NCBI RefSeq assembly: GCF_016432865.1
Contig: NC_067401.1
Span: 191,146,001 to 191,210,000 of the forward strand
DNA length: 64,000 nt
Direction: 5' to 3'
Source of the DNA: Antechinus flavipes
Lineage: Eukaryota
The notes beneath the pieces were generated by a model. It was not told the DNA's origin. It did not search any database and saw only the letters and a list, made by a program, of their open reading frames with translations. Made by a program: the position numbers and the translations under genes. Below, piece by piece: positions 2,301 through 63,539 of the stretch (positions are counted from its first letter, which is position 1; every line of letters starts with the position of its first letter).

Positions 2301-2580
2301 CCCCAGCCTCGGTTTGCATTCACAGCTCCCTTATCCTCCCAGGTACCATCGAGACGGTGGCCCAGAGGGAACAATAAGCCGGAAGACCTGAAGACTAACG
2401 AGACTTTTCCCAGGCATCTGAGAGCCCGGAGAGGGATGGGGAAGGGGGGCGGGGAAGGAGTCTAAAAGAGGCATTCTAAGGACCATGGTTTAGGGGGAAT
2501 AGGAAAACAGCCACACTAGTGAATAGATTCGTTAGATGGATCCGGAAGAATCACTGTCTCTTTCTTTCTAGGTAATCACG

Positions 2581-5384
<2,804 letters not shown>

Positions 5385-5924: not shown

Positions 5925-6189
5925 AAGAGGAAGTGACCGGAAATAAAGGCATCGGCTCTTTTATCCCATCTGGTCTCTTGTTTTAATTTCGGGGAAGGAA
6001 CGGATGTGTACCCTGGCCTCAGGTACCAGGAGAATTTTAACACTTCTTCCCTGGGGCTTGGGTCCCGTGGAACTCTAGTTAGTAGCTCCGGAGAACTAAT
6101 ATGCCTCGGTTCTCTTCTGATTGGCTTCAAGTTCTCAGCCCCGCCCTTTTCTCTGCTCCCATTGGCTTGGGGCCGAAGTTTTCTTTACC
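5925..6189 (+). promoter_or_regulatory. HSD17B8 promoter
   Basis: ETS motifs GGAAGTGACCGGAAAT (~5929-5944), two inverted CCAAT boxes (GATTGG ~6119, CATTGG ~6160) and a GC box, immediately upstream of the ATG at 6190. Confidence 0.6.
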
Positions 6190-8351: not shown

Positions 8352-9522
8352 CCCCCACAGAGTCCCAGGACACACCTCTTTCCCCCAAGAAGTATCATAG
8401 CCAGGCAAAGGAAGATTCAAATATAGGACAGGAGACCAGCAACTTTATATTGGGGAGACAAGTTATATGAAAAGGGTATCTGAAACCCTAATAAATTTCA
8501 AATCTTTGTACCACCTCTCGTTTCTTCTTGTGTCCAAACCTTCAGACTCCTCCCCATTTCCTCCTTCCCTTCTCCTAGTGGGATTGTTCCTATTCACTGG
8601 CTCGTTTCCCAGGGCAACCCTAGCCACCGGGTGTGAGAGGGAAAGGTTGTGGGATACAAGGCCTGCAGAAGGAGGGGGTCTTGTCCCCACTCCTTTAGAT
8701 TGCCCCAATGTCCAGAATCCTCCCCCCTAACTTTTCCCATCCCTGTGTCCCGCAAGGGGGTACTGGGATGAGGGCGTATTTCTGACTCTGGCCTTAGTGT
8801 AAAGGGGGACAATGTGGAATATATGCCTCAACTTTCATCCTTTTTCTCTCAGTCCCCTTTCTATTCCTCCCCCCTCTTCTTGATGCTTCACAATAGTGCT
8901 GCCAGCCTGGAGATCAGAGTAGGGGGTGGGGGATTAGAGGAGGTGGCCAGGATTAGGGGAAGGGACCAGCCATTGAAAGGGGCCAGAGGGGATGAAAGAG
9001 GGACTGAGGGGGAGAAGAAAGGAGGGGTAATGGGGAGGGGAAATGAGGGGGCCAGGGGCGAATAGCCTCTGGAGCCCACTTAAGGACTGGCCACGGACGA
9101 CGGAGAGGACAGGGAAGTGGTGGGTTCGGAAGGGAGGGGGGACTGGAGCAAAAAAAGGGCGGGCTAGGGAATTGGGGTGTGGGAAGAACAACTCCCCCAT
9201 CTCCACAGCTTCCCTCTCTCGGTCCCCAACTTGATCTCTGGTCCATGTGCACCTGCTCCAGTGGAAAGGAGGTCTAGGCTCCTCTCCAACTCCCGTATCA
9301 TTCCTGCGCCCACTTTTTTTGAATTGGGATCCCCTCGTTGTCTTTACCTCCCCATCCTCTCCTCTTTCCCATCCCCTGACACCTCTAGGTCTCTATCGGC
9401 TCTCCTCTTTATCTTACAGTCTTTTCATTCCCCCCAAGACGGCCCCCTTACCCCACCACAGCAGTCTCTGGCCCTCCATAGGTTGGGTTCTCTATCCCCC
9501 TAGTAACCATCCTGCTCGGGCA

Positions 9523-9596
9523 GCGGCTCCTGATTGTCCAAACGCAATTCTCGTGGCTCCGGCCCTCGAGAATTGGGTCTGGACATCCCGAGCCGC
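9523..9596 (+). ncRNA. MIR219-1: pre-miR-219-1 hairpin
   Basis: Mature 5p TGATTGTCCAAACGCAATTCT (9531-9551) equals miR-219-5p. 3p arm AGAATTGGGTCTGGACATCCCG (9569-9590). Closing stem GCGGCTC/GAGCCGC. Position between HSD17B8 and RING1 matches human. Confidence 0.97.
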
Positions 9597-9899
9597 GGGC
9601 CCCCGCCTCGCAGAGGGGGCGCGGACTTCAGGACGCCTGACACAGAAGAAGGGAGTCCCTAAAACGGAGCGAGCCGGGTGGGAATGAGGACTCCGTGGCG
9701 TGCCTTCGGGACTGGAGACGCTTGTACTGAGTGCAGCAACTAGAGATGAGGATACAGAGAAGGGTGGGCTAGGAGCGGCAGGAGGGCTGGAGGATAAAGA
9801 TGGAGGGCCCTTCTCATTCTAGTCTCCAGTGTAAGGCAGCTTGGGGCCACTCCGCGTTCTTCCCACGGAAGGCAGGCGATGTCACATCTCCAGCCCACT

Positions 9900-10300
9900 C
9901 CGAAAAGAAGCGGCCTCACCGGGAGGAGTGTGTCCTTCCTCCCAGTGCCTTTAGGTGCAGGAAGCCGGTGGAGGTGCGTCCCGTCCCGTCTCTATCCCGC
10001 GTGACCATCGGGAAGGAGCCCCACGTGGAGCAAGAAAGCGGCACACTCGCCCGTACCCTCACGTGGAGGGCATGTGTCACGTGTGCGAAAGAGGTTGGGG
10101 GGAGATCCTCCTTCGATCCAAGTTCCACCCGCGTTCCGGATCAGCCCGGTGACGTAACCATGGTTCTGAGTCAGATAGGGGAGGGAATGGGAAGGCGGAA
10201 GTGACGCATGGGCCCGAGCGCCCCAGCCATGGCGGCACCGGGAGATGTATCGGCGGCGGTGGGACCGGGGTCCTGAGTGGGAGGGACCGAGGATTGAGTG
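9900..10300 (+). promoter_or_regulatory. RING1 CpG-island promoter and non-coding first exon (donor ~10298; next exon acceptor at 10544)
   Basis: CpG-dense. Contains GTGACGTAA plus an RFX-like palindrome AACCATGGTT (10149-10166) and an ETS-CRE composite GCGGAAGTGACG (~10195-10206). Donor GA|GTGAGT. Confidence 0.65.
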
Positions 10301-10617
10301 AGTTTGGCCCGGAAAATACACGACGATAGGGGACAGGGATCGGGTAGGACGCCGGCGGCAGAGGGAACCCTGGAAGAGAAACCTAGGCTGGTGGGCGGGA
10401 TGTGGGGCAGGAGGAGGGAAGAGGAGGGGGGAAGGGAAAGAAATGTAAGGGGGCGGGGCCTCGGGGATTGGAGCGCGTATAGAAGGGGCGGAGCGAAGAG
10501 AGGTGGACCTTAACCCCCACTCCCACTCTCATCCCCACCCCCAGGAAAACTCCGGCAGCTCCTTAGTGGCCCAGTCTGCCCCCAGATCTCCGGAGTGGTG
10601 GTCGGCTCCTTGTCACC

Positions 10618-13000
10618 ATGGCGACCCCAGCAAATGCACAGAGCGCCAGCAAAACGTGGGAACTAAGTCTCTATGAGCTACATCGGACTCCACAGGTGAG
10701 GAAGGGGATCCCCATTCACGCGCATCTCTCCTTCGCACCGCATCCTATACTGTTTACTGTTAACTTCCCCTATCTTGCCTGTATCCAGTTTCTCATCTTT
10801 ATAGGCGACCCAAAGACTGCATATTTTATATGCTTCTCCATCCTGATCTTTCTCACTAATTCCGTTTCTGCAGGAGGCCATCATGGATGGCACAGAAATT
10901 GCTGTTTCCCCACGATCCCTACACTCAGAGCTCATGTGCCCAATCTGTCTGGACATGCTCAAGAATACCATGACCACCAAGGAGTGTCTGCATCGCTTCT
11001 GCTCAGACTGCATTGTCACTGCGCTGCGGAGCGGGTATCAGGAGATACTTGCTAGAATTGGAGGGGTGGGGTGTGGGGGTGTGTGAGGATGGTGAGGTTC
11101 CATGCCTGTGGATGATCTTCTAATCCCTTTTTAGTGTGTGAAAGTAACAGAAACCTCCAGTTACCATTTTGCATTGTAAGTGGTTTCTTTCCTCTAACTC
11201 AATGCAGGAACAAAGAGTGCCCTACTTGTAGGAAGAAACTGGTATCAAAGCGGTCTCTTCGGCCAGATCCAAACTTTGATGCGCTAATCTCCAAAATCTA
11301 CCCGAGTCGAGAGGAATATGAGGCCCACCAGGATCGTGTCCTTATTCGGCTTAGCCGCTTGCATAACCAGCAAGCACTGAGCTCTAGCATTGAGGAGGGG
11401 CTCCGAATGCAGGCAATGCACAGGTATAAAAGTGGTGATACTGAAGTGCTAGACACTAAATTCTAGGAGGTTTCTGGGCATGTAGTAGGCAAAAATTGAT
11501 GATTTTCACTTTCTTGTTTTTTGGCCTCCTAACATCTGACCTCTGACTGCCTAGCCTTCCTACATACTGATTTCTAATTGTTGTTCTTTGCCTCTACAGG
11601 GCCCAACGTGTAAGAAGGCCAATGCCAGAGTCAGACCAGACAACAACAATGAGTGGTGGGGAGGGAGACCCTGGTGAGGGAGAGGGGGATGGGGATGGGG
11701 AAGATGTTAGTTCAGATTCTGCCCCAGATTCTACTCCTGGACCTGCCCCCAAGCGACCTCGGCCAGGGATGGCGGGAAGTAACAGTGGAGGAACAGGGGG
11801 AGGGGCTACTGGAGGTATAGGTGGGGGAGCAGGTTCTGAGGATTCTGGGGACCGGGGTGCCCCGCTGGGTGGAGGGACCCTGGGTCCACCAAGCCCACCT
11901 GGGGCTCCCAGTCCTCCTGAGCCAGGAGGAGAGATCGAGCTTGTGTTCCGGCCCCATCCTTTGCTGGTTGAAAAAGGAGAATACAGTCAGACTAGGTGAG
12001 GAAATTCCCTCAGCAACTGTCTAAAAATTGGGGAACCAGGGACCAAAAGGGATACCCCAAAGTCACAGGGCTTCCTTGTCCAGTCCTGAGGATAATTCCA
12101 TCTATCACTTTGACTCCCCCAAATTCAGAAACATACCTAATGCAAAATCATGATTTCTTCCAAACTTTAAACAATTTCCTGAAAACCCCCAAGATGCCCT
12201 TTCAATATAACATATTTCCTGTTTCACATATATGCTGTATCAAAGCATATTTGCTTTTTTTCACTGATCATTTGCCCCAATTCCTCAGATATGTGAAGAC
12301 AACAGGGAATGCCACAGTTGACCACCTCTCCAAGTACTTGGCTCTAAGGATTGCACTTGAACGGAGGCAGCAACAAGAGGCAGGGGAGCCTGGGGCGCCA
12401 GGTGGAGGAGTCCCAGAAGCTGGAGGACCTGAGGGAGGTGGGGGGGAGGCACCCAGAACTGGAGGAACTGATGGGACAGAGGAGCCAGCCTTGCCCAGCC
12501 TGGAGGGTGTCAGTGAGAAGCAGTATACCATCTACATTGCACCTGGGGGAGGAGCTTTCACGGTGAGAAAATGGAAGGGAATAATTGTGGGGGGGTATTG
12601 GGAACAAGAGAAAAATTTAAGATAAAACATGCTCCATTCATCTTGTCACTAATCAGTTTTCTGTATGCTGTTTCTCTCCCACTTTTCTTTTTGTCCTTCC
12701 ATTTATCTCCCATTACCTTCCTCTTTTATTCTTTTTTTTCCCTTCCCATCCCTCTCCCTCTTTTTTCATACTTGGAGATTTTTCTTTATATCACTCATGT
12801 CTTTTTTTTCCCCCTGATCCCACTTTTTTTTTCTCCTTCCTTTTAACACTGTTCTCCCCTTCCCTCTACCTTCTTTCTGATTTATTTCATATCCCTAGAC
12901 TTTGAATGGCTCACTGACCCTGGAGTTGGTGAATGAGAAGTTCTGGAAGGTGTCCAGACCCCTGGAGCTGTGCTATGCCCCAACTAAGGACCCCAAGTGA
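10618..13000 (+). CDS. RING1: E3 ubiquitin ligase RING1 (RING1A, PRC1), 6 coding exons, 408 aa
   Basis: Exons 10618-10695, 10874-11034, 11208-11423, 11600-11995, 12289-12562, 12899-13000 (1227 nt). C3HC4 RING (CPICLDML...CLHRFCSDC...CPTC), Gly-rich linker and RAWUL C-terminus ending [18 protein letters not shown] at 13467-13472. Confidence 0.98.
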
Positions 13001-13479
13001 CCCAAGGGATGGGGCTCATGGGGCTTCTGTGTGTATGTCCTAGCTCTGCCTCCAGGTCTGTGTTCCCCCTACCCCACTCCTTACCCTGCCTGGCCGGCGG
13101 AGAGAGGACACCGAAGAGGACAAATGGCTTTTATATAAAGTGTCTATATCAGATTCTTCTATATTGTACAGATTGGGGTGTGCACCCCCAATTCCTTCCT
13201 TTTCTATTCACCAGTCACCTCCCTTCTGTAATGGGATGTTATGGAGGGAAGAAAACCTCCCCTCCCGCCAACAACGCATTTGCTTTTTTTCTTTCAAATC
13301 TGTGTCTGTCTGTGTGTTGGGGGAGGGGGGAATGGACCAAAGAAGGAAGGGGAAATAGTATCGACCATGAAAAATTTTGAATGTTGCCTCCGTGGGAAAA
13401 AATCAGATCGCTAATACAGTTTGAAAGCCGGAAGGAGCAAAGTGGAAGAGATAAAAATATCTCCCCAATAAACGAGAGT

Positions 13480-13985
13480 GGCTAGCAGATATCGTCGCTG
13501 CCCTGCTTGTTCTGCGTCCCTTGTCCTTGGTCACAGTTACAGCTTCATGGCGCTCCGCCTCCCTGGACGTCTAAGAGGGGCAGTAGCCAGGACTACGGTT
13601 CCCATGAGGCCTCAGAGTAGGGCATCGCTGACCTTAGAACGCTACTGTCCCGAAGGCCTATGGGGATTGTGGTTTTTACTTCCCCAGGTAGTGGGGGAGG
13701 GGGTCGTGGAAATCATTGGTTCGCCTTTCTTGCTGCAAGATGGGTGGGATGTGAGCTTACCCGGGACAGAGTTGCAGGGGCTGATAAGCGTCAGGGCTCA
13801 ACGGGAAATCTAGTAGAAAGCTGGATGGCTTTGGGAGGGATCGAGCCCCTCCCGCCCCCGCCCCTTCTTCGGGTACTCTGCCTCTCACTTCCTGTTTCCG
13901 CTACTCCTTTCATTTCTCCCCGTCCCCAAATTCCCGTGTCTGAGCTCAGTCCGCTGTCTGGCTGGCAGTCGAGTTGGTGGTGCAG
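13480..13985 (+). promoter_or_regulatory. CpG-rich promoter and probable first exon of the KRAB-ZNF gene
   Basis: ZNF143/THAP11-type motif GACTACGGTTCCCATGAGGC (13591-13610), a second degenerate copy ~13642, ETS motifs CACTTCCTGTTTCCG (~13886) and a strong donor CAG|GTAAT at 13985/13986. Confidence 0.6.
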
Positions 13986-15438
13986 GTAATTGGTCCGCCC
14001 GGTCCTCTCCCTAATATCTCAGCCGTCAGTCCTCCTCAGCCCCGAGATCCTCAAAACCAGGGACTCCCACACCTTGAGACCTATATTGTGGACCTTCCAT
14101 ACCAGGGACCCTCCCACACCCCCGGGACTTTCAATACTAGGCCATGGACCTTAAATATTAGAGACCCTTTCCGAGACCCAGGATCCTCGATTTCGTGAAT
14201 CCCTCTGCCCAAATCAATAAGGGACTCGCCCATGCCTCTGAAACCTATAGCCTCCGGACCTCAGTGTTAGAAACTTCCCAGTCCCTGAAACCTCCAATAC
14301 CAGAGACCTGCCCCTTCTCCCACACATCTACCGTACTCGACATCTCAGACTCAGAACTCTCAGCCTCCGATTCGATATCAGCCAGCCTCTTACGCAGCTC
14401 GAAGACACCCCCAGAGCCCTCAGGGAGCTTCAGTATCAGGGACTTTTCTATTGCTGCATCTTTAACACGGGAGAGCTCCTTTCCTGTAACCTTCAGACAG
14501 TTTTTAAAGACCCCCAGTGCCAAAACTCTCCCAGTAGAACTCTCAATGTCATAAATCTCTCCCTGAATTCTTGTGTCTTCCTACAGTACCAGAACTAGGG
14601 AATCTCCCCGGAACCAAAGACTTTCTGTAGCCTCTGGGAATGATCCAGTGCACTCTCCCAGTGTTTTCCTAATATCAATAATTTCCATTTGCACCCTTCG
14701 ATATATGTCTTCTCTAGTTTTGAGGGTCATTTAATGACCACCTATACTTTTCCAACCCCCCAACCTCAAACCCAGGCAGCACCTCCCCATTTCCCAGGCT
14801 TCCTAATAAGTCATCCAAATTCCTGTTCTCAAAACCCTGAAGCCAATCTCTCTCTCTCTCTCTGGGCATCCTGTTCCTAATTCCCCCAGTTTGCCTTCTT
14901 TTCCTCTGTTCCCGATCTGAGAAGTGTGGTGTTTCTGGCATGCTGGGGGAAAGGAAGATGGGACTAGTTTGGGAATTGAGATGTTTGTTCAACCTGAACC
15001 TGGTGCCTCCCAGTGGTCTGAGCTTGCTAATTTCATAGTGGCAGAAGGAAGTGCTAGATGATATGGAGAAAGGGGGGGGGGGGGGGGGCGCGGGGGAGAG
15101 AAGGGCTAGATAGATATACATGAGGAAAAAAATGGTGGAATTTCCCCTCTTCTCTGTTTTGGTTCCAGAGACAGTGTTCCTTCCCCTTCTCATTAAACCT
15201 AACTTCCCAGTGGTCCTTTCTTTCCTCCCAGTCCTGTTCCCCTTACTCCATCCTGGCGCAGTCCATAATTCCCCTTTCCCCCTGCCCTTCCCCTTCCTCC
15301 CCATGTCCTTGTCCCTCCCCTTCTCCTCCAGCTCTTATGTCACCTACATCTTCCCATCCTTCTCTCCTCTCTGCTTCTCACTTTTCTCCACCTTCCCTCT
15401 CATTGTCTTCCACTGGTCATCTTAATCCTCCACCCCCT

Positions 15439-17978
15439 ATGCCAGTGACTTTCACAGACGTGGCTGTGTATTTTGGAGATGTCATGTGGGAGAGCTACAG
15501 GGACCTCATCTCCTTAGGTGAGTACCTTCCATTCTAACATTTATTCTATTAGGGGTGTTGAATTAAAGTGAAATGTCAAATTGAGAGGTGATCTCTCTGT
15601 ACTCTCTGCCAGCATTTCAGTCTTTGAGGTCCCTAGCTCTCTCTTCTCGATTCACCCTCAGGCATCCTACTTCACCATCTCTTGAGTCTTCCTGAATCCA
15701 GCAATCAGATTTTTCTCAAGCACTTTTAATTTGCAAGTATCTGTACCAGATGCAAAGAATACAAGAATACACCAAAAAATGTGTTTTATTGGCTTTTGGG
15801 AGAGATGAGTTACAGAAGTCGATAGAACACTAAGTGGTCAAGAAAGACTTTATGAAAAAAAAAAAAACAAAAAACACTTCATGGAGCACTTGAACTGGGC
15901 CTTGAAGAATTGTTAGGATTCAGCACCAGGGAGGGCTTGGAGGAGAAATTTTTCTAGATAGAATAGTGAATCTTGTTCTTTCTTGCCCCAGGATTTCCAT
16001 TCCCTAAACCAGAACTGATCCCTCACCTGGAGGAAGGGAATGAGCCATGGGGTCCGGGATCTCAAGAATCTGAAGAAATGGGAGTCCCAAAAGAATCCTA
16101 TCCAGGTGAGTAACCAGCACGGAAAATATCCTTTTGCCTTCCCTCTACCTCCTCATGTTCCAAAAAGGGAATTATCAGCTCCAAGATTTGGAGCTTGAAA
16201 GGACTTTGGAGGTCACCTATTTTACACAGGAGGAAATTGAGATTTAGAGGAAAATATCTGCCCAAGGCCAAAGGACTAGAAAGTGGCAGGAGCAAGAGTT
16301 TGAGGTTCTCCAGTGCCAAAACCATCAATCTTCCCACTGTATCACATGGCCCCAGGGATGGAACTCTACTATACCCCCTCACTATCCTAAACTATACTCT
16401 TGTTCTCCAGTAATTGGCAGGAATCATCAAAGTTCTTACCCCTGCCATCAGTAGAGAGGGCTAACCTTAGCCCCTCTCCCCCATCCCTTTCTCCTTGTGC
16501 CTCCAAGGATACAAATTGCTGTATGAGATGTCCTGGTCCACTCCATGTCCCTTCAGGAATGCTATCTATCACAGAGGGGAGGAAAACAATTTCCATAGGG
16601 ATTGAAACCACCTTTCTCCTGTTCACTACAAGATCCTCTTCTTCCTCTATATTCCCTTCATTTCATCACTGTTTGTCTCATAGGCATGAGGACCAAGGAA
16701 GAAGAAGAGGCAGAATCAGTCCCTGACCTTCCTTCTGTCTTGGAGAGTTCCCCACTACCAGCTATACCCTGTGGCTCAACCATCTCCCCACCCCCAGCAT
16801 CCCCACCCCCACCCCCAAAACCCTTTTCCTGCCCTGAATGTGGTTCCTGCTTCTCACGACGCTCCCACCTTTCCCGCCATAGGCTGATTCACTCCGGTGA
16901 GCGCCCCTTCCCCTGCCCTGAATGTGGAAAGTGCTTTGCCCAGGGTGCCCACCTGGCCTTGCATCTGCGTTCCCATACAGGTGACCGACCCTATTCTTGT
17001 GGTCAGTGTGGCCGAAGCTTTCGCCATGGCTCCCATCTGGCCCGGCACCGACGCACACATCTGCCTGACCCCCCCTACCGATGTGGCCAGTGTGGCAAGG
17101 GTTTCTCCCAGAGCTCTGGGCTCCTACAGCACGCCACTGTCCACACCGGCGAGCGTCCCTATATTTGTGCTGTTTGTGGCAGAGGCTTTGGCCGTCACCC
17201 CAGCCTTATCCGCCACCAAAAGTCCCATTCAGGGGAACGTCCTTTCCCCTGTCCTGAGTGTGGCAAGCGCTTCACTCAGAGTGCCAATCTTGCTCGCCAT
17301 CTTCGGACACACACTGGAGAGACACCATACCTGTGTAGGGAGTGTGGGCGCGGCTTTAGCCAACACCCTCGCTTAGTGGCACACCGGAAGACCCACCACT
17401 CAGGACCCCCACCCCCACCCCCTCCTGTCCATTCCTGCGCTGACTGTGGTCTACTGTTCCCTCAGGCTCTGGCCCTGGTCCGTCACCAGGCAGCCCATCA
17501 TGGTGGTGAGAAGCCATTCCGCTGCACCCAGTGTGGGGAGGGTTTTGGTCACCGCTCCAACCTGAGGCGCCACCAGCGTGGCCATGGTGGGGAGCGGCCG
17601 TACCGCTGCAGTCAGTGTGGCAAAGGCTTTGGCCAGAGCTCCGGCCTGGTCCAGCACCAGCGCATTCACACTGGTGAGAAGCCCTTCCGCTGCCCAGACT
17701 GCGGGCGTGGATTCCGCTATAGCTCCAACCTGGCGCAACATTACCGGGGCCACACTGGGGACCGCCCCTTCCGCTGTGAGCATTGTGATCGTGGCTTTAC
17801 CCGTAGCTCTCACCTGCTACGACACCGTGCCACACATGGTGGGGAGGATGGAGATGAGGACTGTAGGCCCGGAGGGATCCCTGTGCTGACAATTAAGGCA
17901 ACTTCCCTAAGCCAGGAATCTCCCAAGGACTCTGGAGGCACTGTCCAAGTGAGTGAAACCCTATCTCAGCCAGAGTGA
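15439..17978 (+). CDS. KRAB-A/KRAB-B C2H2 zinc-finger protein with 12 fingers (~495 aa)
   Basis: KRAB-A exon 15439-15517 (MPVTFTDVAVYFGDVMWESYRDLISL G|GTGAGT). KRAB-B exon 15992-16105 (GFPFPKPELIPHLEEGNEPW...). Final exon 16684-17978 has 12 intact CxxC...HxxxH fingers with TGERP-type linkers. Phases 1/1 are consistent and there are no internal stops. The start codon is uncertain. Confidence 0.9.
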
Positions 17979-33667: not shown

Positions 33668-34262
33668 TGTTGGAATCCTTACTAACTGCTAAGTAATTAG
33701 AGTTGATCTAATCTTACAAGAAGTTGTTTTGGCCAGAACTTGAAACAAGGTACTAAGTAGAACTAATCAAGACAAGGCTTGTGTTCCCACCTTTACTCAT
33801 TGGAGTCCACAAGTATGCTAGCTTCACAAAGTACACTTTCTAACTTCAAGGGAGTCCACACCTTAAAGCTCTTTGGGCCAGAGAGCACTATGGGAGAAAA
33901 CCCATAATCCCATTCTCTCAGAAGTTTCAGATATAAGGCGAGACAGCCATTCCAGAATACACTTTTTCCTCTTGGCTGGCTGATCGCACTGGACTCGAGA
34001 GGAACGACTCTGGTGCAGAGAACACTTTTGACGGATTTCAGGGGAGCTACGCCAGAAGCCCTCTCTCCGCGGCAAGTTGGTGGCTGGGCTCCCCAGAGGG
34101 AGATAAGAGAGACTTTCCATCTCTGTCTTGGTTGGAGGCAGAAGAAAGCAGAGGCAGAGGCTGAAGGACAGAATCTTTGGATTTGGAGACATCCAAAGGG
34201 CTCCAAGCCTCTAAACCGGCTGTGCTCTGAGAAGAACAAACTCCAACATTTGAACTCTAACA
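33668..34262 (+). mobile_element. Solo LTR (595 bp) related to the betaretroviral LTR at 53020/55657
   Basis: TG...CA ends, flanked by AATTTC / TATTTC (6-bp TSD, one mismatch). The first ~130 bp and the GCAGAGGCAGAGGCTGAAGGA block match the reverse complement of the provirus LTR. Confidence 0.88.
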
Positions 34263-37070: not shown

Positions 37071-38759
37071 CAGCTGGAGCACTTTAAATCCTGCCATCTC
37101 CTCCCTGACGTCTCTCAATCAGAAGAGATTGTCCATAATTGTGAGGAAGTTATAGACTCTGTCCACTCCAGCAGATCTGACTTAAAGGACACCCCCCTTG
37201 AGAACGCCGATGGGGAGTGGGTCACAGATGGGTCGAGCTTTCTCGAGAATGGGGAGAGAAAGGCCGGCTATGCTGTGGTGTCCCTTCACAGCACCCTGAA
37301 GGCCAAGCCATTGCCTCCTGGTCCTCTGCACCGAAATCGGAGCTCATTGTATTAACCAGAGTGTTAGAACTTGGGAAGGGGATGAGAGGCAACATCTACA
37401 CTGAATCCAAATATGCTTTCTATATTTTACATGCTCATGGAGCAATTTGGAAAGAAAGGGGCTTGTTGACAGCAAAAAACTCTCCCATTAAACATGCGGG
37501 AGAAATTATGCACCTATTGCACGCTGTCCGTGAACCCAGAAAGGTCTCGGTCATATTCTGTAACGGGCACCAAAGGGGGGATTCATTTCAGGCCAACGGA
37601 AACAGGCTGGCAGACCTTGCTGCTAAGTCTGCTGCCCTTTCACCACTGACTGTGTCTCCTTTAATTCCCTAACTGCCCGAGTCTTTTGTTCCTTCCTAAA
37701 CAGCTCTAGCAAAGGAACGGGGGTTCACCCTTTCTCCCTCCGGTTGGTTTCAAACGCCCTCAGACACTTCTTAATTCCGGAGGCAAGTCAGTGGAAACTT
37801 GATCTCTGGTCTCCACCAGGCCACGCACCTGGGGAGAAATGCTCTCCATTCCCTGGGGAAACGCATTCTCATGGACCACAAGCTGGGGGAAACATTCAAA
37901 CAGGTGTGCCAGGCCTGCCCAGTCTGTGCCCAGGTAAATCCCGAGGGAGCTGTTAAGCCCCCACCTCTCCCGAAGCCAGTCCCGAGGGGAGGCACGTGCC
38001 CTGGCGAGGATTGGCAGCTAGACTTCCCCCACATCCCCCCTTGTAGAGATTTTAAGTTGCTTTTGGTATTTGTTGCTACTAACCTCCCAACTGATAGAAT
38101 GCTTTGCGACTACATTCATCCATGGGGCCGAGCAACCAGGAGACTGCTTCAGAATCTAACCTCAGGTACCGTCTGTGCACCTAAGGGATATGCCTCCCTC
38201 TGCAAAGTAAGTTCCCCATTCCCCTCCAGCACCTCTCAGAGGCCTATTAAGAGAAATGCCTCTGATTGGAACCCACTCCCACCTGTGACTCTCTCCACCC
38301 AGTGCTTGACGCCCTTCAAACACTATGGGTCTTGCATCTTGGGCCACTTGATTACCCCTTTCACTGTATACAATGCCAGTGCCCCAGATGCAGCCCCAAC
38401 TCCTCTGAGGAGACATAAGCGGGGATTCTGGGAGAACACTCTGTGGTACTTGAAGAAAGGGGCTGGGATGCTATTTCCTTGGGTTGGATATTTAGAACAT
38501 GAAAGTGTTCTCTCCAACCTGACAGCCACAGTCCACCAATTTGCCAATGAGCCAATAAACAGCTCATTCATTGAGGGAGATTCAGGAATCTCTTGACTCG
38601 TTGGCTAATATGGTTTTGGATAATCGCATGGTTTAGATTATCTTCTAGCCTCCAGCGGAGGTGTCTGTGCTCTGGTAAACACCTCTTGCTGCATGTACAT
38701 TAACAACTCAAGGAAAGTTGAGCTGCGCACAGAGAGAATCTTACAGAAGGCTGCCTGGA

Positions 38760-38958
38760 ATATACTGCAACATATCTAACATGTATAGGACTGCTTGCCA
38801 TCTAGGGGAGGGGGTGGAGGCAGGGAGGGGAAAAATCGGAACAGAAACGAGTGCAAGGGATAATGTTGTAAAAAAAAATTACCCTGGCATGGGTTCTGTC
38901 AATATAAAGTTATTATAAAATAAAATAAAATATTAAAAAAAAAGAAAGAAAGAAAGAA
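38760..38958 (+). mobile_element. Young L1 3'-tail insertion into the ERV1 env with a 15-bp TSD
   Basis: TSD AGAAGGCTGCCTGGA at 38745-38759 and 38959-38973, with an A/(GAAA)n tail. Confidence 0.88.
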
Positions 38959-39352
38959 AGAAGGCTGCCTGGATGCAAGATATCCATGAGCAGTTTCTCA
39001 CCCTCCAAGTCCTCTTCTGAATGGGATTCCTGGACATGGTCCCTACTGGCCCCTATACAAACCCCTCTTCTGATTATTATCATTCTGCTCATATTCGGTC
39101 CTTGCATTTTCAGATTGCTCATGAGATTTGTTTCTTCTAGGCTACAAGCTACAAACTTCCAACTTCTCCTGCGACCCGGGAACCCTGAAATAACTGATAG
39201 GCAAACTCTGCATCCACTGGACACTGGCTACCACTTTCAGATCTTGCTTCTCTCCCCCAAGCACCACTTCCCCTTCTTCCCCCCTTTAGGTTGAGCTCTA
39301 CGACCATTTCCAGCAGGAAGTAGATACAGAAGATTTGAGACGACCCTTTTCC

Positions 39353-42994: not shown

Positions 42995-45502
42995 CAGGGA
43001 TCCTCAAACTATGGCCTGTGGGCCAGATACGGCCCACTGAGGACATTTATGCGGCCCGCCGGGTTATGGCAAAATTAGACCAGAAGTGACGTTTGATCTA
43101 AACTTGCATTAGCAACACACACTCCTGGCACTGGGCTGCGGTGGTGGAGATAGAGTGTGAGGCAGTATCGAGGTGAGGTGAGTTCCCAGGCCGGGGTGTG
43201 TGGGGGGGGGAAGGGGGAGAGATGCAGAAGACAGAGAACTGAGGGCCCGTAGGGGATGTACAGTGCATGCTGCACATGTCACTGCCGCTGCAGGGGGAAT
43301 TCACTGCAGCAGTGAAGGTTGGAAGCGGGAACTCGAAGAGGGGGAGAGAGAGTGCAGGAAACAGAGGCGTCACAGTGCAGAGGCAGCTTGGAGGAACTTG
43401 GGCACGTAGTCTGTATGTCTCTGTGTGGGCAAAGTTACTGCTGGTATGTTGTTTTTGTAGCGCTGTATACACATATTGGTATTTTATTAATAGTAATTTG
43501 GAATCCCTAGGAAATAATGATGTCAAAAAAAAGAAAAATTGACTCAGAGTGTAGGATATTCAAAGAACAGTGGATTTAGGATTACTTTTTCATGCAGGAC
43601 AAGGAAAGATCTGGGTGTCTGATATGCCAGATACTATATTCTGTGTTCAAAGAATATAATTTGCGTGGCCACTATGAAACTCAACATAAAGATTAATATG
43701 ATTGTTTGGTTGGAGAAATGAGAAAAGATAAATATTAAAACTGAAAAACACATTGACAACTCAGCAAAATACTTTTGTGAAGCAGAAGCAGCTAAATATT
43801 TCATCACTGCGAGCAAGTTTTCAAGTTGCCAAGCTAATAGCACGCACTGGCAGACCATTCGTGGAGGGAGAATTTGTTAAAGAATGCCTTCTTTCTGTTG
43901 CCAAAGAAATATGTCCAGAGAAGGCCGATTTATTTAGTACAGTGAGTCTTTCAAGACCTACAATTACACGGAGGATTGAAGAAATGGGAGACAATCTGCA
44001 TCAGCATTTGCAAAACTCCATAAAAAAAATTTCATATTTTTCCTTGGCACTTGATGAAAGCAATGATGTTTGTGATTCTGCACAACTTCTAATGTTTATT
44101 CGTGGGACGAATGATTATTTAGAAGTCATAGAAGAGCTTGCTGCACTACAAAGCATCAAAGGAACAACTACAGGAGAGGATATCTATGAAAAAGTTTGCC
44201 AAACTATGAATGGTTTGGAGCTGGACTGGGCTAAACTAGCCAGCGTGACAATTGATGGTGCTCCTAGCATGGTGAAGTCTAAGAAAGCAGTAATTGCTCA
44301 TATTAACCAAGAGATGGACAAACATAACCATTCTCATCCAATAGCCACACACTGCTTCATCCACTGACAAGCGCTGTGTAGTAAATCACTGAAGTGGGAC
44401 TCCATTATTGTGTAACTTCATTAGAGCTAATGCACTAAATCACAGACAATTTCAGGAATTTCTGTCTGAGCTAAGTGTTGAGTATGAAGATGTTCTATAT
44501 CACACAGAAGTCCATTGGCTGAGTTGAGGGAGAGGTTTGAAACGTTTCTATGACTTACTTCCACAGATTACAACTTTTCTGCTTTCAAAAAACAAAGAAG
44601 TACCAGAGCTCAATGACGCAGAATGGAAATGGCACCTTGCCTTTCTGACAGATGTAACAGAGCTACTCAACAATTTCCATATGCAACTTCAAGGTAAGGG
44701 GAAGCTCATCTGTGATATGCAATCACATGTCAAAGCATTTGAAGTAAAATTAGGCCTCCTCATCAAACAAGTGAAGGAGGAAAACTTCTGCCATCTCCCC
44801 ACAACTCAAAATCTGTTAGTGGAAAAACCACTGATTGCATTCCCAAACAAAACATGTGTGGATTCACTGGAAAAATTGCAAAAGGAGTTCCAATTTAGAT
44901 TTAAAGAGCTTCATCATGGAGATGACATGCAGCTTTTCTGTAACCCATTTTCTATTGACATTGAAAACGTGGATACAATTTACCAAATGGAACTGGCTGA
45001 ACTGCAGAATTGTGACTCTCTGAAAGATGCATTCAAGTCAAGCAGCCTTCATAATTTCTATGCATCTCTCCCTTCTGAGACATAGCCTCATCTCAGGAAC
45101 CATGCACTCAAAATGGCAACCATCTTTGGCAGCACTTATGTCTGTGAACAGACTTTTTCTAGAATGAAACATTTGAAATCTCCGACCAGATCAAGACTAA
45201 CGGATGCACACTTGCATCACTTGTTACGACCAGCAGTGACAAATATGGAACCAGACATTGACCATCTCATTAGCCAAAAGCAGGCCCATAGTTCCCATTG
45301 AAATACTGGTAAGTTTGTTGATTTAACTTTACTTCATTTTAAATATTGTATTTGTTCCCATTTTGTTTCTTCACTTCAAAATAAGATATATGCAGCATGC
45401 ATAGGAATTTGTTCATAGTTTTTGTTTTTACTATAGTCCGGCCCTCCAACAGTCTGAGGGACAGTGAACTGGCCCCCTATGTAAAAAGTTTGAGGACTCC
45501 TG
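42995..45502 (+). mobile_element. Near full-length hAT (Charlie group) DNA transposon, OposCharlie1/OC1-like, 2508 bp
   Basis: TIRs CAGGGATCCTCAAACT (42995) and AGTTTGAGGACTCCTG (ending 45502). 8-bp flanks GTGTAGAG / GTATGGAG (6/8 match). Contains a decayed transposase. Confidence 0.92.
43517..45301 (+). pseudogene. Decayed hAT transposase (SPIN/OC1/GTF2IRD2-like)
   Basis: MMSKKRKIDSECRIF, zinc-finger CLICQ...KEYNLRGHYETQH, FSLALDESND, DGAPSM and dimerisation motif FGSTYVCEQTFSRM. Multiple stops and frameshifts. Confidence 0.92.
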
Positions 45503-51439: not shown

Positions 51440-53019
51440 ACAATAACTAACATTTGTATTGTACTTTAAGGTTTATTAAGTCCTTACAAATATCATCCCA
51501 TTTGAGCTTTAAAGCAACCCTACAAGGTAATCTATCATTAATCCCATTTTACATTGAGGAAACTGAGGCAGACAAAAGTTGACTTGCCCAGTATCATACA
51601 GCAAGTATTTAAGGCTGGATTCAAACTTGTCTTTTTTATTTTAGGCCTAGCACTCTATTCACTGAGCCATCCAAATATTCACTAGCCCTGTATAAATGTA
51701 CAAACATCTATAATAAGGATTATTTTTCTCACATTAATAATTATTAATTAAGATTGTCCCTTTTCAATTTCCTTACTCTGAAATAAACCTTTTTAGGTTA
51801 TATAGCCAATCTTCATGAAGGACTTTGATGATAGATGAGATTACCCAAATGCTCTGGCTTCATCCTTCTTATCCCATCCCTTTTTCAAGGAGAATTTAAT
51901 CTAGGTAGAATCCATATCCCACCATCATACATTATTCACCAATTGGTTATCCTATGTAAAAGTAGTCTGGCTTGAGATAAATCTTTGTCAATGAGGATAT
52001 GATCAGTCACATATTCAGTCCCTTATTAGAATAGTTTCCACCTTCCTTTATAATATTCATTTTCTCACTAATTATTAAACAATCAGAACTGATTGCCAGT
52101 TGTCAGAAACACCCACTCTTCCAAGGACATATAAGCATCAACAAGCCTCCATCTTTGGTTTACTGAGAGTAAGACCATGACCATCCTTTTATTAATTATT
52201 TCCTCTCCATAATTAATAAAATGATTAATTACCCAGAAATTATATCTCTCAAACTTTTCACACATCACAATATACAATTATATACATATATAAGTATATT
52301 TATAGAAAATGGAAGTAGTTACAGTTAGAATTGAACAAGACTTATCAGCAGCCACAATAAAAGACCATGTGTTCTAGAAACATAACAGTAATGAAAAGAA
52401 CTAGGCCAAAAATATCATGTCCAACAAAATTATCCATAATGAATTTTTAAAAATGGACATTCAACAAACTTGCAAATTTTCAGGACTTTCTTTTAACCAA
52501 ATCCAAACTCAATTGAAAATTTAACATATAAGAGGCAATATCAATTTCAAGGAACTTAACTTTGACAAATTATTTATGTTTTTTACATGGAAATTTATAC
52601 CAAGTGTTTAAGATTGATATCAGCAAATGGGAAACTCAAAAGAAAAATTGGGGCAAAATTGAGCATGATCTAACTTTAAAAAGCAAAACTGCCTAGGAAA
52701 TGGTAAAAATAGTTATTACATTACACAAACGAGGTTCAAAGTAAGAAAGACACAGAGGCATTAGAGGGGGAAAAAGGACTTGTAGTTCTGAAAACCTAAT
52801 CTCACCAGGAATGGATTAAATAGGCAATACTACATATATACCATAAAGAGTATAGTACTCTCCAAAATCTATAAAGAAATAAGGTGGGAAGGGATAGTGG
52901 AGGGAGAAACAAAGTATGGAGGAAAAAGACAAGGGAGGAGTCCATGGGTAGGGAGAGGTTAAATAATAGCAAGGTAAGTTAAGAAGCAGAAATAAAGCAG
53001 AAGAGTCAGCAAGGATAGG

Positions 53020-56000
53020 TGTGGTGAGCTTTTTCTTCTTAAAACGCAGCCAGGTGATAAAAGTTCAGATCTTTTATTATTTCCAATATAGCCCGGTTAG
53101 CTTAGAGGCCTATCTCTCTGCTTGGTTCCAAGAGCTCCCTCCGAATGTCACCAAATCCAAAGGTCTGGTCCTTCAGCCTCTGCCTCTGCTTTCTTCTATC
53201 TCCAGCCAGCTCTACTCTTCATGTCATTCCGGCAAAATCTCGACTTGTAGTGTCTTCACTCTCAAGAACCTCTTCGACTGGCCCATTGGCCTATTTATGC
53301 TCCTTCCAGAGAGAGGGATTATGGGTTTTCTCCCATAGTGCTCTCTGGTCCAAAGAGCTTCAAGGGAGGTATGAACTCATTGAACTCCAATGAGTAAAGG
53401 TGTGAACACAAGCCTTGTCTTGATTAGTTCTACTTAGTACCTTGTTTCAGGTTCTGGCCAAAACATCTTCTTGTAAGATTAGATCAACTCTAATTACTTA
53501 GCAGTTAGTAAGGATTCCAACATATCCCCCTTTCTTTTGTTTTAAAACATAGGGGGTTTCTGAGGGGGTACACATAAATCCATCAATATGGGCCAGAACT
53601 TTGTAACAGATATACATGGTATACATAAATCCATCAATATGGGAGGCATTATACATAATTTACATAAGTACATAGCAATATAACACAGGCTAGTCCATTA
53701 GTTCATGTGCCAGGAATCTAATAATTCCTGTAAGCTCTGAAGTACTGCAAAAGGTCTCATCAACAATTTTTCATCTCAGGGAATCCAGTGATTCTTGCTG
53801 GTTTTTCAGGAACTGAAAGCTGAAGATTTTAAAGTTCTTTTGACAGTCTCATTGTTAGCCTTTTCCACCTGTGAAAATATAAGCAGATCCTCTTCCCCAA
53901 GCAATTAACCTATTTAATTCTCTTCTATTTACCAAGTTTGGGATTTCTCCTCATCATCTGGTAATTACATTGGAGTTGTTTGCATTGGATATTGTCTTGT
54001 TGTCTTAAAAAGCCTGTATTCTTCCCAACTGTAATCTTGATTGCTTTTCTGTTGGTTGATGACATCAGAGTCCTGAATTTCTAAAGTCTCTCTGGGTGTA
54101 ACCTCAGCTGCTATCATGCCCCACCTGTCCTTTGATTGATACTTTGGAGCTGGGCCTTGCCTCTCCTTCCTCTGGGTCAATATACATTTAGAGGCCCAGT
54201 GAAAGCCTCGGTTACATTTTGGACATGGGGTTTTGGGTTTTCTCTCACCCTGTCTTCTCACTCTATCTCCATATCTACAATGAGCTCTCAAATGTCCAAT
54301 TTTTCCGCACTGAAAACATCGACGAGTTTCTCTAGAATTCCTCTGCCAAGAAGGACCTTGTCTTTCCATGTTCATCATAGTCTGGGCATAATAAGCATTT
54401 GTGCCCACTGTGGCACAGCGTCTTATGATTTCTTCTAAAGGAGCATCTTTGTCTAGCCCCCATATAATTCTTTTGCAAACCTCATTGGCATTTTCCTTAG
54501 CCAAATGTTTAGTCATTATTTCTGTTGCTGCATTGTCTCCAATGGTTCTTATTACAGCTGTTTGTAAACGTCCCACAAAATCTGCAAAAGGTTCATTGGG
54601 ACCTTGCTCTATTTTTGTGAAAGCATTATTTCCATCTTTCTGTCCAGGGAGAGAATTCCAAGCTTTTATTGCAGCCTTAGAAATTTGCTCATACACTGTT
54701 ATGGGATAATAAATCTGTTCTGAACTCTCTGCATACTGACCTTCTCCAGTTAGTTGGTCAAAAGCAACTTGTACAATAGCTCCTGTTTGCCTATTGCATT
54801 GGGCTTGAATCCTACATAATTCATGAAACTCTGAAAGCCACAATAAATTTTGTCCCGGTTCTAGACAAGTTTTCGTTATGGATTTCCAGTCATTCGGGGT
54901 TAGGATTTCATAAGACAAATTATCTAGTAACATCTTCACATAAGATGATGTAGCCCCATAAAGAGTGCAACCCTTTTTCAAATCTTTAATTTTTTCCAAA
55001 TTAAAAGGAGTGTATCTTCTCCTTTTTTGACCTGAGGAGTTGAGCTCTTCAATCACAGGATATGCATGTATAAAATCAGATATATCTTCTCCTTCATTTT
55101 TTGCTTTAATTAATGCTTTTTCTAATCTTGTCAAATTCTGCTTTACAGGAGAAGCTGACTGTGTTTCTGTCTCTCTCCCTCCCCCTTGTTCTACCCATGA
55201 AGGGTTAATTGCGGGGGGAGGGTCATGGGATGTGGAATCACCTAATTCCTCCTTCTGTGAAGTATCATACTCAGAATTGTAATTAACTCCATTCTCATCT
55301 GATTTGTCCTCCTTTTCACCTAGTAAAGTTGGCACTTCCTCCTGTACTTTCCTTTTCATCATTCTATCACTTAAATAACTTCTTATAGCCAATTGTATTA
55401 CATTATATGTATTAATTATTGAGTTAGGCCCATTTTTATCATAGAATTGACAAAGATCCTCTCCAACCAATTTCCATTCATTTAGATCTAATTCCTTATC
55501 AAGAGAGAAACAAGGACATATGTCCTTTACAGTTTGTAAAAGTTCAGTGATTTGCTGTAAACTTATAATTAAACCTTGGCTTTCCATAATTTTGACAATG
55601 CTCTCTAAACATTTTCCACTGAGGGGGGTCTGTTAGCCCCACGTTGGGCGCCAAAATGTGGTGAGCTTTTTCTTCTTAAAACGCAGCCAGGTGATAAAAG
55701 TTCAGATCTTTTATTATTTCCAATATAGCCCGGTTAGCTTAGAGGCCTATCTCTCTGCTTGGTTCCAAGAGCTCCCTCCGAATGTCACCAAATCCAAAGG
55801 TCTGGTCCTTCAGCCTCTGCCTCTGCTTTCTTCTACCTCCAGCCAGCTCTACTCTTCATGTCATTCCGGCAAAATCTCGACTTGTAGCGTCTTCACTCTC
55901 AAGAACCTCTTCGACTGGCCCATTGGCCTATTTATGCTCCTTCCAGAGAGAGGGATTATGGGTTTTCTCCCATAGTGCTCTCTGGTCCAAAGAGCTTCAA

Positions 56001-56159
56001 GGGAGGTATGAACTCATTGAACTCCAATGAGTAAAGGTGTGAACACAAGCCTTGTCTTGATTAGTTCTACTTAGTACCTTGTTTCAGGTTCTGGCCAAAA
56101 CATCTTCTTGTAAGATTAGATCAACTCTAATTACTTAGCAGTTAGTAAGGATTCCAACA
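53020..56159 (-). mobile_element. Young gag-only betaretroviral (class II/ERVK-type) provirus, 3140 bp
   Basis: Two 503-bp TG...CA LTRs (53020-53522, 55657-56159) differ at 2 positions. Perfect 6-bp TSD GATAGG. PBS TGGCGCCCAACGTGGGGC (55653-55636, tRNA-Lys1,2 type). PPT AAAAGAAAGGGGGATA next to the 3' LTR. Confidence 0.97.
53965..55587 (-). CDS. Betaretroviral Gag, intact 540-aa ORF (N-truncated MA, CA, NC)
   Basis: MA-like KDICPCF...EWKLVGEDL. CA with MHR IEQGPNEPFADFVGRL. Two CCHC knuckles, CFQCGKIGHLRAHC and CPKCNRGFHWASKC. No internal stop. Confidence 0.93.
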   Translation of the reverse strand: MESQGLIISLQQITELLQTVKDICPCFSLDKELDLNEWKLVGEDLCQFYDKNGPNSIINTYNVIQLAIRSYLSDRMMKRKVQEEVPTLLGEKEDKSDENGVNYNSEYDTSQKEELGDSTSHDPPPAINPSWVEQGGGRETETQSASPVKQNLTRLEKALIKAKNEGEDISDFIHAYPVIEELNSSGQKRRRYTPFNLEKIKDLKKGCTLYGATSSYVKMLLDNLSYEILTPNDWKSITKTCLEPGQNLLWLSEFHELCRIQAQCNRQTGAIVQVAFDQLTGEGQYAESSEQIYYPITVYEQISKAAIKAWNSLPGQKDGNNAFTKIEQGPNEPFADFVGRLQTAVIRTIGDNAATEIMTKHLAKENANEVCKRIIWGLDKDAPLEEIIRRCATVGTNAYYAQTMMNMERQGPSWQRNSRETRRCFQCGKIGHLRAHCRYGDRVRRQGERKPKTPCPKCNRGFHWASKCILTQRKERQGPAPKYQSKDRWGMIAAEVTPRETLEIQDSDVINQQKSNQDYSWEEYRLFKTTRQYPMQTTPM

Positions 56160-56449
56160 GATAGGAAAGAAAAGATATGCACAAACACTACAAGAATCAG
56201 GAGTAGAATTTATTAGAAAAAAAAAGTACACTAATAATCATTGATCTTAGACAAAGTCAAATTCAATAGTATTCAATAGGAGAGAAATCTACATTATATG
56301 TCAGTCATACTAATATTGTTTTAGATGCATGTTTATATATGGGTAAATGCATGTATGTATGTGTCTGAGTATATGTAGTATATACATGTTACTCTATGTA
56401 TGTGGGTCTGTAGGTGGGTATGATTGTATATGTATATATGTGTGGGTAC

Positions 56450-59322: not shown

Positions 59323-59558
59323 NNNNNNNNNNNNNNNNNNNNNNNNNNNNNNNNNNNNNNNNNNNNNNNNNNNNNNNNNNNNNNNNNNNNNNNNNNNNNN
59401 NNNNNNNNNNNNNNNNNNNNNNNNNNNNNNNNNNNNNNNNNNNNNNNNNNNNNNNNNNNNNNNNNNNNNNNNNNNNNNNNNNNNNNNNNNNNNNNNNNNN
59501 NNNNNNNNNNNNNNNNNNNNNNNNNNNNNNNNNNNNNNNNNNNNNNNNNNNNNNNNNN
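59323..59558. other. Assembly gap (236 N); a second gap lies at 62021-62235 (215 N)
   Basis: Runs of n. Confidence 0.98.
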
Positions 59559-60628: not shown

Positions 60629-63539
60629 TTCCCCATCCCACTCCACTCCTTCAACCCCAAAGACTAAGTCGTCCGCACTTTCACTGGAAGTCTATTGGTA
60701 GGACCTGGAATAGAACCAGAATTTTCAAAAATGCAAATTTCTTCAACTCATTAAATCCCCGTTTCCACGATATGACTGTTTTCTTTCAACCACAACTTCC
60801 CGAGCTCATAGGAAGAGAGTGAGGTTGGGGGAACTGTGGGTATGTGTGGGAGGGGGCTTCTAGGAGCAGTTTAATGCCAAACAGCTACACGCGAGCAGCG
60901 GTGGTCAAGTGGCTTGTTTCCTTGTCAAGCTTCTCTCTGGGGTGAAAAGGGAGACTAAGGTGTGCTCTGGAATATCATGAAACTTTCAAAAAACCTTGTT
61001 CCTCATTGGGACGTCCCCACCCCAATCAGATGGGAGAAAAAATCTCTTCTTGCTTTGGGTCAGCTTAATCCCATGCATCACTCAGATTTTTCACAGGTTA
61101 TATTTATAGCCACGGACTTTAATAATGTAAATAGAATTAAATACAAAAAAAATTAAACTAGCAGGCCGCAGTATGGATGGCAATCTGGGAAATAGATCTA
61201 CTATATCCTTGGCAACTTTCCCACTCAAACTGCTGTTTTTAAAGAGAGGGATGAAAGGATCAGTTCTGATGTCAAGTGACCAACTCCACGACTAAAACAG
61301 TGAAAGCAAAACAAAACAATGAGAGGTTAGATGAGGGTTTTGGAAGCTGACCTGGCTTGTCACCAATCACCAGCCTATGTGGCTCCATGGGCATCTTTGG
61401 TTGACTGCTTATGGCACCAGCATTAGTCCTCCTTCCTTTTGAAAGAGAACCCAGTGACATTAAGAGTGGGTCTTGACTCTTGCCCGAATTATATTTAAAT
61501 GAGGCAGAGTTACACAAAGTCAACAACTGCACTCTCTCTTCCAGAATCATGTCCCAAGGTCAGGACAACTGCAGAGCGTCTGAGATGACCTTATTTGAGC
61601 AAGCTCTAAGCATTCCACAGCCCCTTCTTCAATCACCTTCATGGTCATTGACTCCATGTTCTGGCATAGACAGCTCCCTAACCCGACAATGTAGTCCATC
61701 AGGTATCCGGTGGTTTAGCCCACCTGCTGAGACAGTTCTAATGGGGTGTGGCCACTGTACATTGTAAGCTTCTTGGAGTCGTAGATGAGCAGCCTTGTAG
61801 GGCTTGGCAGCCCTCATACATAGGCCCTGCTCCTGTCTGAACATCCCATACACCCGTGTTCGTTCACTATCATCTCTCCCGCCTGATCTCTCAGTGTGGG
61901 CCAAAACAAGCAATCAATAATTATTACTCACATGGCCTTCCCAGAAATTCCTGGTCTTAAGGACAAAATGGAAAAATATGACGGACTCTGAAGACAAAAA
62001 AAAGGGGTGGGGGGGAGAGANNNNNNNNNNNNNNNNNNNNNNNNNNNNNNNNNNNNNNNNNNNNNNNNNNNNNNNNNNNNNNNNNNNNNNNNNNNNNNNN
62101 NNNNNNNNNNNNNNNNNNNNNNNNNNNNNNNNNNNNNNNNNNNNNNNNNNNNNNNNNNNNNNNNNNNNNNNNNNNNNNNNNNNNNNNNNNNNNNNNNNNN
62201 NNNNNNNNNNNNNNNNNNNNNNNNNNNNNNNNNNNTTCTACTGCCCGGAATTTCTTGTTCTTATTTGGGGGAGACTGAAGATGAAAACCTTCATCTCCCC
62301 ACAGCTCCCAGCCTCTCCCGGCACGACCTGCTCCCCTCTTCCTTCTCATCCTGTCTGTGCAGACAAGGGCTCTGGTGGGGAAGGGGGAGGAGGGTACATC
62401 CTAGTGTGCACGTCTGAGTGGGCCGGATCCCTGCTAAGCGTCAGTCCTGTGCACCGAATATTTAAAAACAAATTTTAACATGAACAGAAATGAAATTTTT
62501 AATGGTCTGTGAAAAAAAGGGCTGCGTATAAGCCAGGTGTGGAGCAGTTGTAGCCTATTGATTACTCACCAGATGGCGCCCCTTCCCCATCCCACTCCAC
62601 TCCTTCAACCCCAAAGACTAAGTCGTCCGCACTTTCCCTGGAAGTCTATTGGTAGGACCTGGAATAGAACCAGAATTTTCAAAAATGCAAATTTCTTCAA
62701 CTCATTAAATCCCCGTTTCCATGATATGACTGTTTTCTTTCAACCACAACTTCCCGAGCTCATAGGAAGAGAGTGAGGTTGGGGGAACTGTGGGTATGTG
62801 TGGGAGGGGGCTTCTAGGAGCAGTTTAATGCCAAACAGCTACACGCGAGCAGCGGTGGTCAAGTGGCTTGTTTCCTTGTCAAGCTTCTCTCTGGGGTGAA
62901 AAGGGAGACTAAGGTGTGCTCTGGAATATCATGAAACTTTCAAAAAACCTTGTTCCTCATTGGGACGTCCCCACCCCAATCAGATGGGAGAAAAAATCTC
63001 TTCTTGCTTTGGGTCAGCTTAATCCCATGCATCACTCAGATTTTTCACAGGTTATATTTATAGCCACGGACTTTAATAATGTAAATAGAATTAAATACAA
63101 AAAAAATTAAACTAGCAGGCCGCAGTATGGATGGCAATCTGGGAAATAGATCTGCTTTCTCCTCCTTGCCCTCCCTTTCCTTCTACCTTTCTGAGAGAAA
63201 AATAGCAAAATGATACAAATCAAACCTCCCAAAACTTGGACAAGGAAAACTTGGACTCCAGGAAATCAAATGAACAGGCCAATCAGTGATTGGCCTAAAT
63301 ACTCTCTGCCTTGATTTCCCCCTCATCTCCCATCCCTGGTTCCTGGATTTCCTCCTCTAGGCATATCTTCTTAATATTAGCATGCTATTTCATCTATTTT
63401 ACCTATCATTATAGATTATTATTTATTTTTCCTGTAATAACTGTACAATTCCTAATAATAACTATAAAATCTGTATACCTTTAGATACTACACAGGTATA
63501 ACGTATACTACCTAATAAAGAAACTAGGGAAGTTAATAG

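Follow-up and report, generated by a model that had tools for sequence, protein, structure and literature searches.

The 3-kb, gag-only ERV on the minus strand of a 64,000-nucleotide stretch of the Antechinus flavipes genome (NC_067401.1, positions 191,146,001 to 191,210,000; hereafter the window, numbered from its first letter) is best explained, with a probability of roughly 65 %, as a recent, doubly deleted derivative of the MEBrv3 group that would have been copied by borrowed enzymes and would provide little working Gag of its own, a passenger resembling mouse ETn. An old and shared deletion has removed about 3 kb from the gag end to the integrase tail, leaving the arrangement LTR-PBS-gag-integrase tail-polypurine tract (PPT)-LTR. 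This gag-only form would spread non-autonomously, typically with an open Gag starting with Met-Gly, as in mouse IAP IΔ1, while RT and integrase would be supplied in trans by a gag-pro-pol relative. A younger deletion, restricted to a minority of copies, has taken away the leader and the first matrix codons, probably in a small multi-copy sub-lineage; such a short-leader copy would travel with its PBS, PPT, LTR ends and gag-coding RNA alone.

Structure and parentage of the element

Re-examination of both LTRs and their flanks reproduced the near-identity and the flanking TSDs described in the sequence-only reading (Table 1); both LTRs end in TG...CA. With the rate assumed to be 2e-9 per site and year, two differences in 503 nt correspond to an insertion age of about 1 My (range 0.1–3.6 My). 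The succession of PBS, 48 nt and first in-frame ATG (55587) was located by sequence, and the Gag frame, earlier called uninterrupted, is indeed open for all 540 codons from this ATG (555 codons from stop to stop). Likewise, three-frame translation of the region 3' of gag revealed no pro, RT or env. The integrase relic is present as described, but the start first assigned to it (about 53860–53900) is too late: it extends from about 54016, inside the gag ORF, to about 53855, and the final 16 Gag residues are, as judged by eye, integrase tail read in frame. Overlooked in the sequence-only reading was the first ATG after the PBS (55612), which is out of frame and lies ahead of the gag ATG. Judged from its sequence, the element is a recently integrated, internally deleted copy derived from the env-less dasyurid MEBrv3 group.

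Table 1 Features of the gag-only element, given in window coordinates
Feature	Position	Strand	Basis
Whole element, 3140 nt	53020..56159	-	LTR pair and TSDs
TSD GATAGG, 5' side	56160..56165	.	LTR-flank inspection
5' LTR, 503 nt, TG...CA, AATAAA at LTR position 445	55657..56159	-	
PBS, 18 nt, 3 nt past the 5' LTR; presumably of the tRNA-Lys1,2 type	55636..55653	-	
Remnant separating the PBS from the first in-frame ATG, 48 nt; homopolymer run of variable length at about 55623-55628	55588..55635	-	
Upstream ORF, out of frame, 22 codons, overlaps gag ATG	55544..55612	-	
Gag ORF, 540 aa; N-terminally shortened matrix, CA-N, CA-C, two CCHC knuckles	53965..55587	-	
Deletion junction, gag end / integrase tail	54016..54017	-	By-eye comparison with the MEBrv3 record
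Integrase C-terminal relic, frameshifted, with stops	53855..54016	-	Translation and by-eye comparison
3' non-coding region, shortened, like the 3' region without env in MEBrv3	53539..53854	-	By-eye comparison
PPT, with a similar counterpart in the MEBrv3 record	53525..53538	-	
3' LTR, agreeing with the 5' LTR at 501 of 503 positions	53020..53522	-	
TSD GATAGG, 3' side	53014..53019	.	

Pfam matched the matrix (Gag_p10), CA-N and CA-C domains of Gag, and the solved structures closest to the protein carry the labels Gag, Gag-Pro-Pol and HERV-K Gag. The Gag_p10 matrix, a capsid nearest to those of HERV-K and MPMV, and the two CCHC knuckles assign the element to class II (betaretrovirus-like), and the same assignment is obtained from the TG...CA LTRs, the 6-bp TSD, the PBS and the PPT. 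Late-domain motifs (PPxY, PTAP, YPxL) are absent from the Gag ORF, an absence that is family-wide and not peculiar to this copy. The exact Gag of the window has no entry in the protein collection searched.

According to the accessible part of its description, MEBrv3 is an env-less element of about 7.3 kb with gag-pro-pol, has identical LTRs in copies from quoll, dunnart and antechinus, and averages 67.5 % of dasyurid ERVs (PMC11334065). The window element shares with it the class II affiliation, the absence of env, the amplification in Dasyuridae and the occurrence of young copies whose LTRs are identical. Agreement with the MEBrv3 record, as compared by eye rather than by computed identity, extends to the gag end, the integrase tail, the 3' region and the PPT. 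The ordinary gag stop is lost at the junction, where the gag end runs straight into an MEBrv3-like integrase tail, and about 3.0 kb comprising pro, RT, RNase H and most of the integrase are absent relative to published MEBrv3. The element is thus not the autonomous form with intact gag-pro-pol of about 7.3 kb, but a derivative of its group; it also differs from the representative, as far as that is described in the accessible text, in the leader of about 110 nt, the Met-Gly start and the LTR. Since its LTR is unlike the published one by eye, the window element belongs to another LTR subfamily, and since its 3' non-coding region and PPT resemble those of MEBrv3, the ancestor was probably already env-less before the deletion. 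The MEBrv3 representative, with its deviating LTR, does not present a helper carrying the LTR of the element, a point against the preferred explanation. All close homologues with a named source are dasyurid (Sminthopsis, Sarcophilus, Antechinus); the Antechinus protein P0033 is 94 % identical to the window Gag over 268 aa, and no relative was found in the metagenome and viral contigs scanned.

The surroundings of the element comprise, at 313–17975, successive Pfam matches to nuclear-receptor AF-1, to a ZIP zinc transporter, to a short-chain dehydrogenase and to RAWUL, with a KRAB zinc-finger gene next in line; within the extended MHC class II region, this order is taken to be that of RXRB, SLC39A7, HSD17B8 and RING1, and the element is located about 35 kb beyond this RXRB-to-RING1-like row. 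An older related LTR, apparently solo, lies on the plus strand at 33668–34250; its first 251 nt are 82 % identical to the element LTR, and an additional 72 nt are 86 % identical. Another ERV is represented by decayed pol/env (Pfam RNase H, TLV_coat) at 37202–39291, and two long frames without Pfam match at 43732–45082 presumably represent a hAT-type transposase. Between 59225 and 62475, two near-identical stretches each run into an N gap (59323–59558 and 62021–62235), reflecting either a local duplication or an assembly artefact. The flank of the element is repetitive and yielded nothing on polymorphism.

The shared gag-integrase junction

Six of the 177 fetched proteins (P0001, P0004, P0022, P0024, P0028 and P0030) align past the gag-integrase junction. 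All are Sminthopsis (dunnart) models located on four scaffolds (told apart by size), with 60–71 % identity to the window Gag. The same stop is found in five of them, while P0004 reads on in the shifted integrase frame of the window; the devil proteins P0007, P0031 and P0015 terminate at the ordinary gag end. In addition, a 206-nt contig of run X7 (record 26; 53937–54142, three differences, no gap) spans the junction and represents the sole depth at 54037 in this run, which is small (49 million letters) and possibly RNA and from which no evidence on expression is drawn; in the RNA runs, 0.13–0.19 of the words were present. The same deletion junction accordingly occurs in multiple independent copies, those of dunnart being known from gene models, and its presence in both these models and the X7 contig speaks against decay at this locus. 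The claim that the deletion defines a family beyond the single insertion is thereby upheld: on the evidence of the models and the bridging contig, a multi-copy, cross-genus gag-only family exists, which is likely old, non-autonomous and dependent on borrowed enzymes. Of the deleted, non-autonomous, MusD-like family that had been envisaged, the first two attributes are retained in view of the recurring junction and of MEBrv3 as an env-less gag-pro-pol group (accessible part of PMC11334065), but the MusD-like framing is not.

The window element combines intact cis elements (LTR ends, PBS, PPT) and a fresh TSD with the absence of any enzyme, which implies that RT and integrase acted in trans unless the deletion came after integration; the latter is unlikely, since the junction is shared. 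A dominance of the junction form, at first deduced from the absence of loose ends, was dropped, as the break at 55617 is likewise missing among the 24 of 2,903 pieces listed. Equal depth on either side of the junction would be expected of full-length elements as well and does not establish dominance of the junction form.

In favour of selection on gag, long open frames are retained in the dunnart junction copies and, among the 12 of 34 indels listed, both of those inside the gag ORF measure 3 nt and all 1-nt indels fall outside gag. On the other side, the third-position signal is weak (10 of the 20 gag sites among the 40 of 263 variable sites listed; p = 0.09). The capsid tree, covering 32 of 33 rows (without P0021), unites the window with P0002 and P0005, a protease-bearing model (97/90), and separates it from the clade of the dunnart junction copies; this position suggests an exchange of gag with helpers. 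Recombination may consequently renew gag, as opposed to selection preserving it. Comparison of the dunnart Gags P0001 and P0003/P0030 revealed near-identical capsids next to very different matrices (40 % versus 57–59 % identity to the window), a mismatch that points to recombination inside the family.

Across 53523–56159, the sense strand carries A where many relatives have G at 15 sites (among the 40 variable sites listed). Two of these follow C, and the next base is a purine in 12 of the 15 (p = 0.06). The G-to-A excess of the window possibly reflects editing by an APOBEC-like deaminase.

The lost leader and its alternative readings

The window element lacks the leader of roughly 110 nt together with its splice donor, as well as the Met-Gly start, all of them present in relatives; comparison with these relatives and with the MEBrv3 record corroborated this. 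Env-less as it is, the MEBrv3 record begins gag with Met-Gly, behind a leader of about 110 nt. Met-Gly also opens 14 of the 15 relatives whose N-terminus is complete, P0033 included (19 rows listed minus four that are fragments or spurious weak matches). Depth at 55622, within a segment specific to the short leader, amounts to 468 in run X1, 1886 in X2, 2963 in X6 and 0 in X7, compared with bin means of 477,171, 254,703, 288,567 and 21, respectively; the short-leader depth is thus about 100- to 1000-fold under that of neighbouring gag, depth not being equal to copy number. A 428-nt contig of X7 (record 32) is identical to the window over 55441–55617 and unlike it from there on. The low depth and this break together indicate that most family members are without the leader lesion. 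The homopolymer run of the remnant occurs in two or three lengths per run in X1, X2 and X6, each length in 1–3 contigs at depth 47–481, and the diverged pieces listed have depths of 12–83. Length variants with depths above those of diverged pieces suggest several to a few tens of short-leader copies, i.e. a small sub-lineage.

That leader and Met-Gly were instead lost by a one-off reverse-transcription error in this copy (or in a few duplicates), dead on arrival within an otherwise real gag-only family, is considered unlikely. Such an error would account for the low lesion depth (zero in X7) and for the PBS junction, which is spanned by at least 31 nt on both sides in no contig among those listed. 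It would also conform to MMTV, in which packaging depends on the 5' UTR in full and is crippled by its loss according to the accessible part of PMC3473059, a requirement that argues against efficient spread of the leaderless form. However, the lesion segment is covered in three of the four runs and under three organism labels, the contigs carrying the two or three run lengths per run are up to several times deeper than diverged pieces, and X1 contains the +2 and +3 lengths without +1, unlike a series produced by sequencing errors.

The sequence-only reading had tentatively interpreted the missing myristoylation start as a MusD-like family adaptation in a copy that still supplies its own Gag. 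MusD of mouse lost Gag myristoylation, and a comparable step would yield unmyristoylated Gag from the internal ATG, with cytoplasmic assembly favouring its own RNA and the lesion being adaptive. The 540 open codons, the intact capsid, both knuckles and the strong context of the in-frame ATG, from which leaky scanning could still yield protein, are compatible with this, as are the hints of several short-leader copies and the existence of IAP without env and without a myristoylation signal (accessible part of PMC9412291). Yet the env-less parent group was amplified with Met-Gly kept, which removes the premise of a MusD-like step; neither a family-wide loss of Met-Gly nor an autonomous gag-pro-pol in the element was found. 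Relatives that start with Met-Gly have the internal Met too, which hence is not a new start. This Met aligns with residue 24 of P0033, in whose structure model matrix helix 1 comprises residues 15–26 (block pLDDT 71–74; the model is poor outside the matrix, with a mean pLDDT of 49, and was used for helix 1 alone), so initiation there would remove 9 of the 12 residues of the predicted helix. With most of helix 1 lost and an out-of-frame ATG coming first, little or no working Gag is predicted, and the proposed self-supply is doubtful. Finally, chance would leave the gag frame open in most copies of such low age, the probability being 0.85 at 0.2 % divergence. A MusD-like adaptation is therefore regarded as quite improbable, and the missing start likely represents additional damage within a minor sub-lineage.

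Very improbable is a host-retained, dominant-negative Gag poisoning MEBrv3 particles: a capsid-intact, matrix-damaged Gag could co-assemble, and enJS56A1 (known here from partial accounts) is a precedent, but the insertion is very young, nothing points to fixation, expression or selection at the locus, and the identical Gag fusion is present in many copies.

Relation to known systems and implications

As a doubly deleted derivative of the MEBrv3 group, the element has several counterparts, which are compared here on the basis of the accessible portions of the respective sources. Mouse IAP IΔ1 is likewise an internally deleted, non-autonomous subtype within an env-less ERV of class II; it has an open ORF that fuses gag and pol and requires proteins in trans, while the fusion ORF acts in cis. 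It has lost 1.9 kb and kept much of pol, whereas here about 3 kb are lost and 16 integrase residues are fused (PMC6466679). Unlike that of IΔ1, as far as it is described there, the junction of the window family is common to genera. By analogy, the gag-only form with Met-Gly would behave like IAP IΔ1. The mouse MusD/ETn system also pairs an env-less betaretroviral master with non-autonomous passengers, and the short-leader copy would act like ETn; ETn is, however, without coding capacity and MusD is autonomous (PMC6466679). In the window element 540 codons are open, yet behind an out-of-frame first ATG and with a shortened matrix. A further difference from MusD/ETn is that Met-Gly is retained by the env-less parent and was lost in a minority form that is defective. 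Defective morphs of the bovine D-type ERVK[2-1-LTR] are mobilised in trans, can outnumber competent ones and undergo inter-morph recombination, but have no intact ORF and depend on a helper that carries env (PMC10924933). Plant TR-GAG elements, in the partial accounts available, share the presence of gag and the absence of pol within an LTR element; they are plant LTR retrotransposons of unrelated origin, and the resemblance is one of design alone.

Trans-mobilised deleted ERV morphs as such are already well known, with examples in ETn, IAP IΔ1, recKoRV and the D-type elements of cattle (accessible part of PMC10924933). A description of the gag-only dasyurid form was not found in the accessible literature searched. 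The words 'non-autonomous', 'gag-only', 'truncated' and 'myrist' are absent from the accessible text of the MEBrv3 paper (PMC11334065), the form is not described in the accessible parts of PMC4408412 or PMC13641905, and those of bioRxiv 10.64898/2026.04.21.719790 have nothing to add on it. The ERV2-1_SH-I family named in PMC13641905 may, as far as the accessible text goes, cover the gag-only form.

Taken as a single locus, the element is a young, defective insertion of an ordinary kind and does not demonstrate a marsupial MusD. A wider reading can be offered tentatively, as possible rather than probable: the bulk of the ERV explosion in Dasyuridae ascribed to MEBrv3 might be a 3-kb gag-only parasite older than the split between dunnart and antechinus, the Gag of which was held open for many millions of years by a need in cis, and which now spawns a still-spreading, second-order leaderless parasite. 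A hint for a gag-only bulk is provided by the mean length of gene-containing ERVs in dasyurids (1,675–1,844 nt in the accessible part of PMC11334065), which is about that of gag plus integrase tail. Were the leaderless parasite indeed still spreading, the packaging signal would have to reside outside the leader between PBS and gag. If much of the MEBrv3 load consisted of a non-autonomous form that keeps gag and is common to several genera, the expansion would be explained differently, and the family would offer a natural, many-copy test of the cis-preference of Gag in a vertebrate ERV, for which mouse IAP IΔ1 has so far been the main example.
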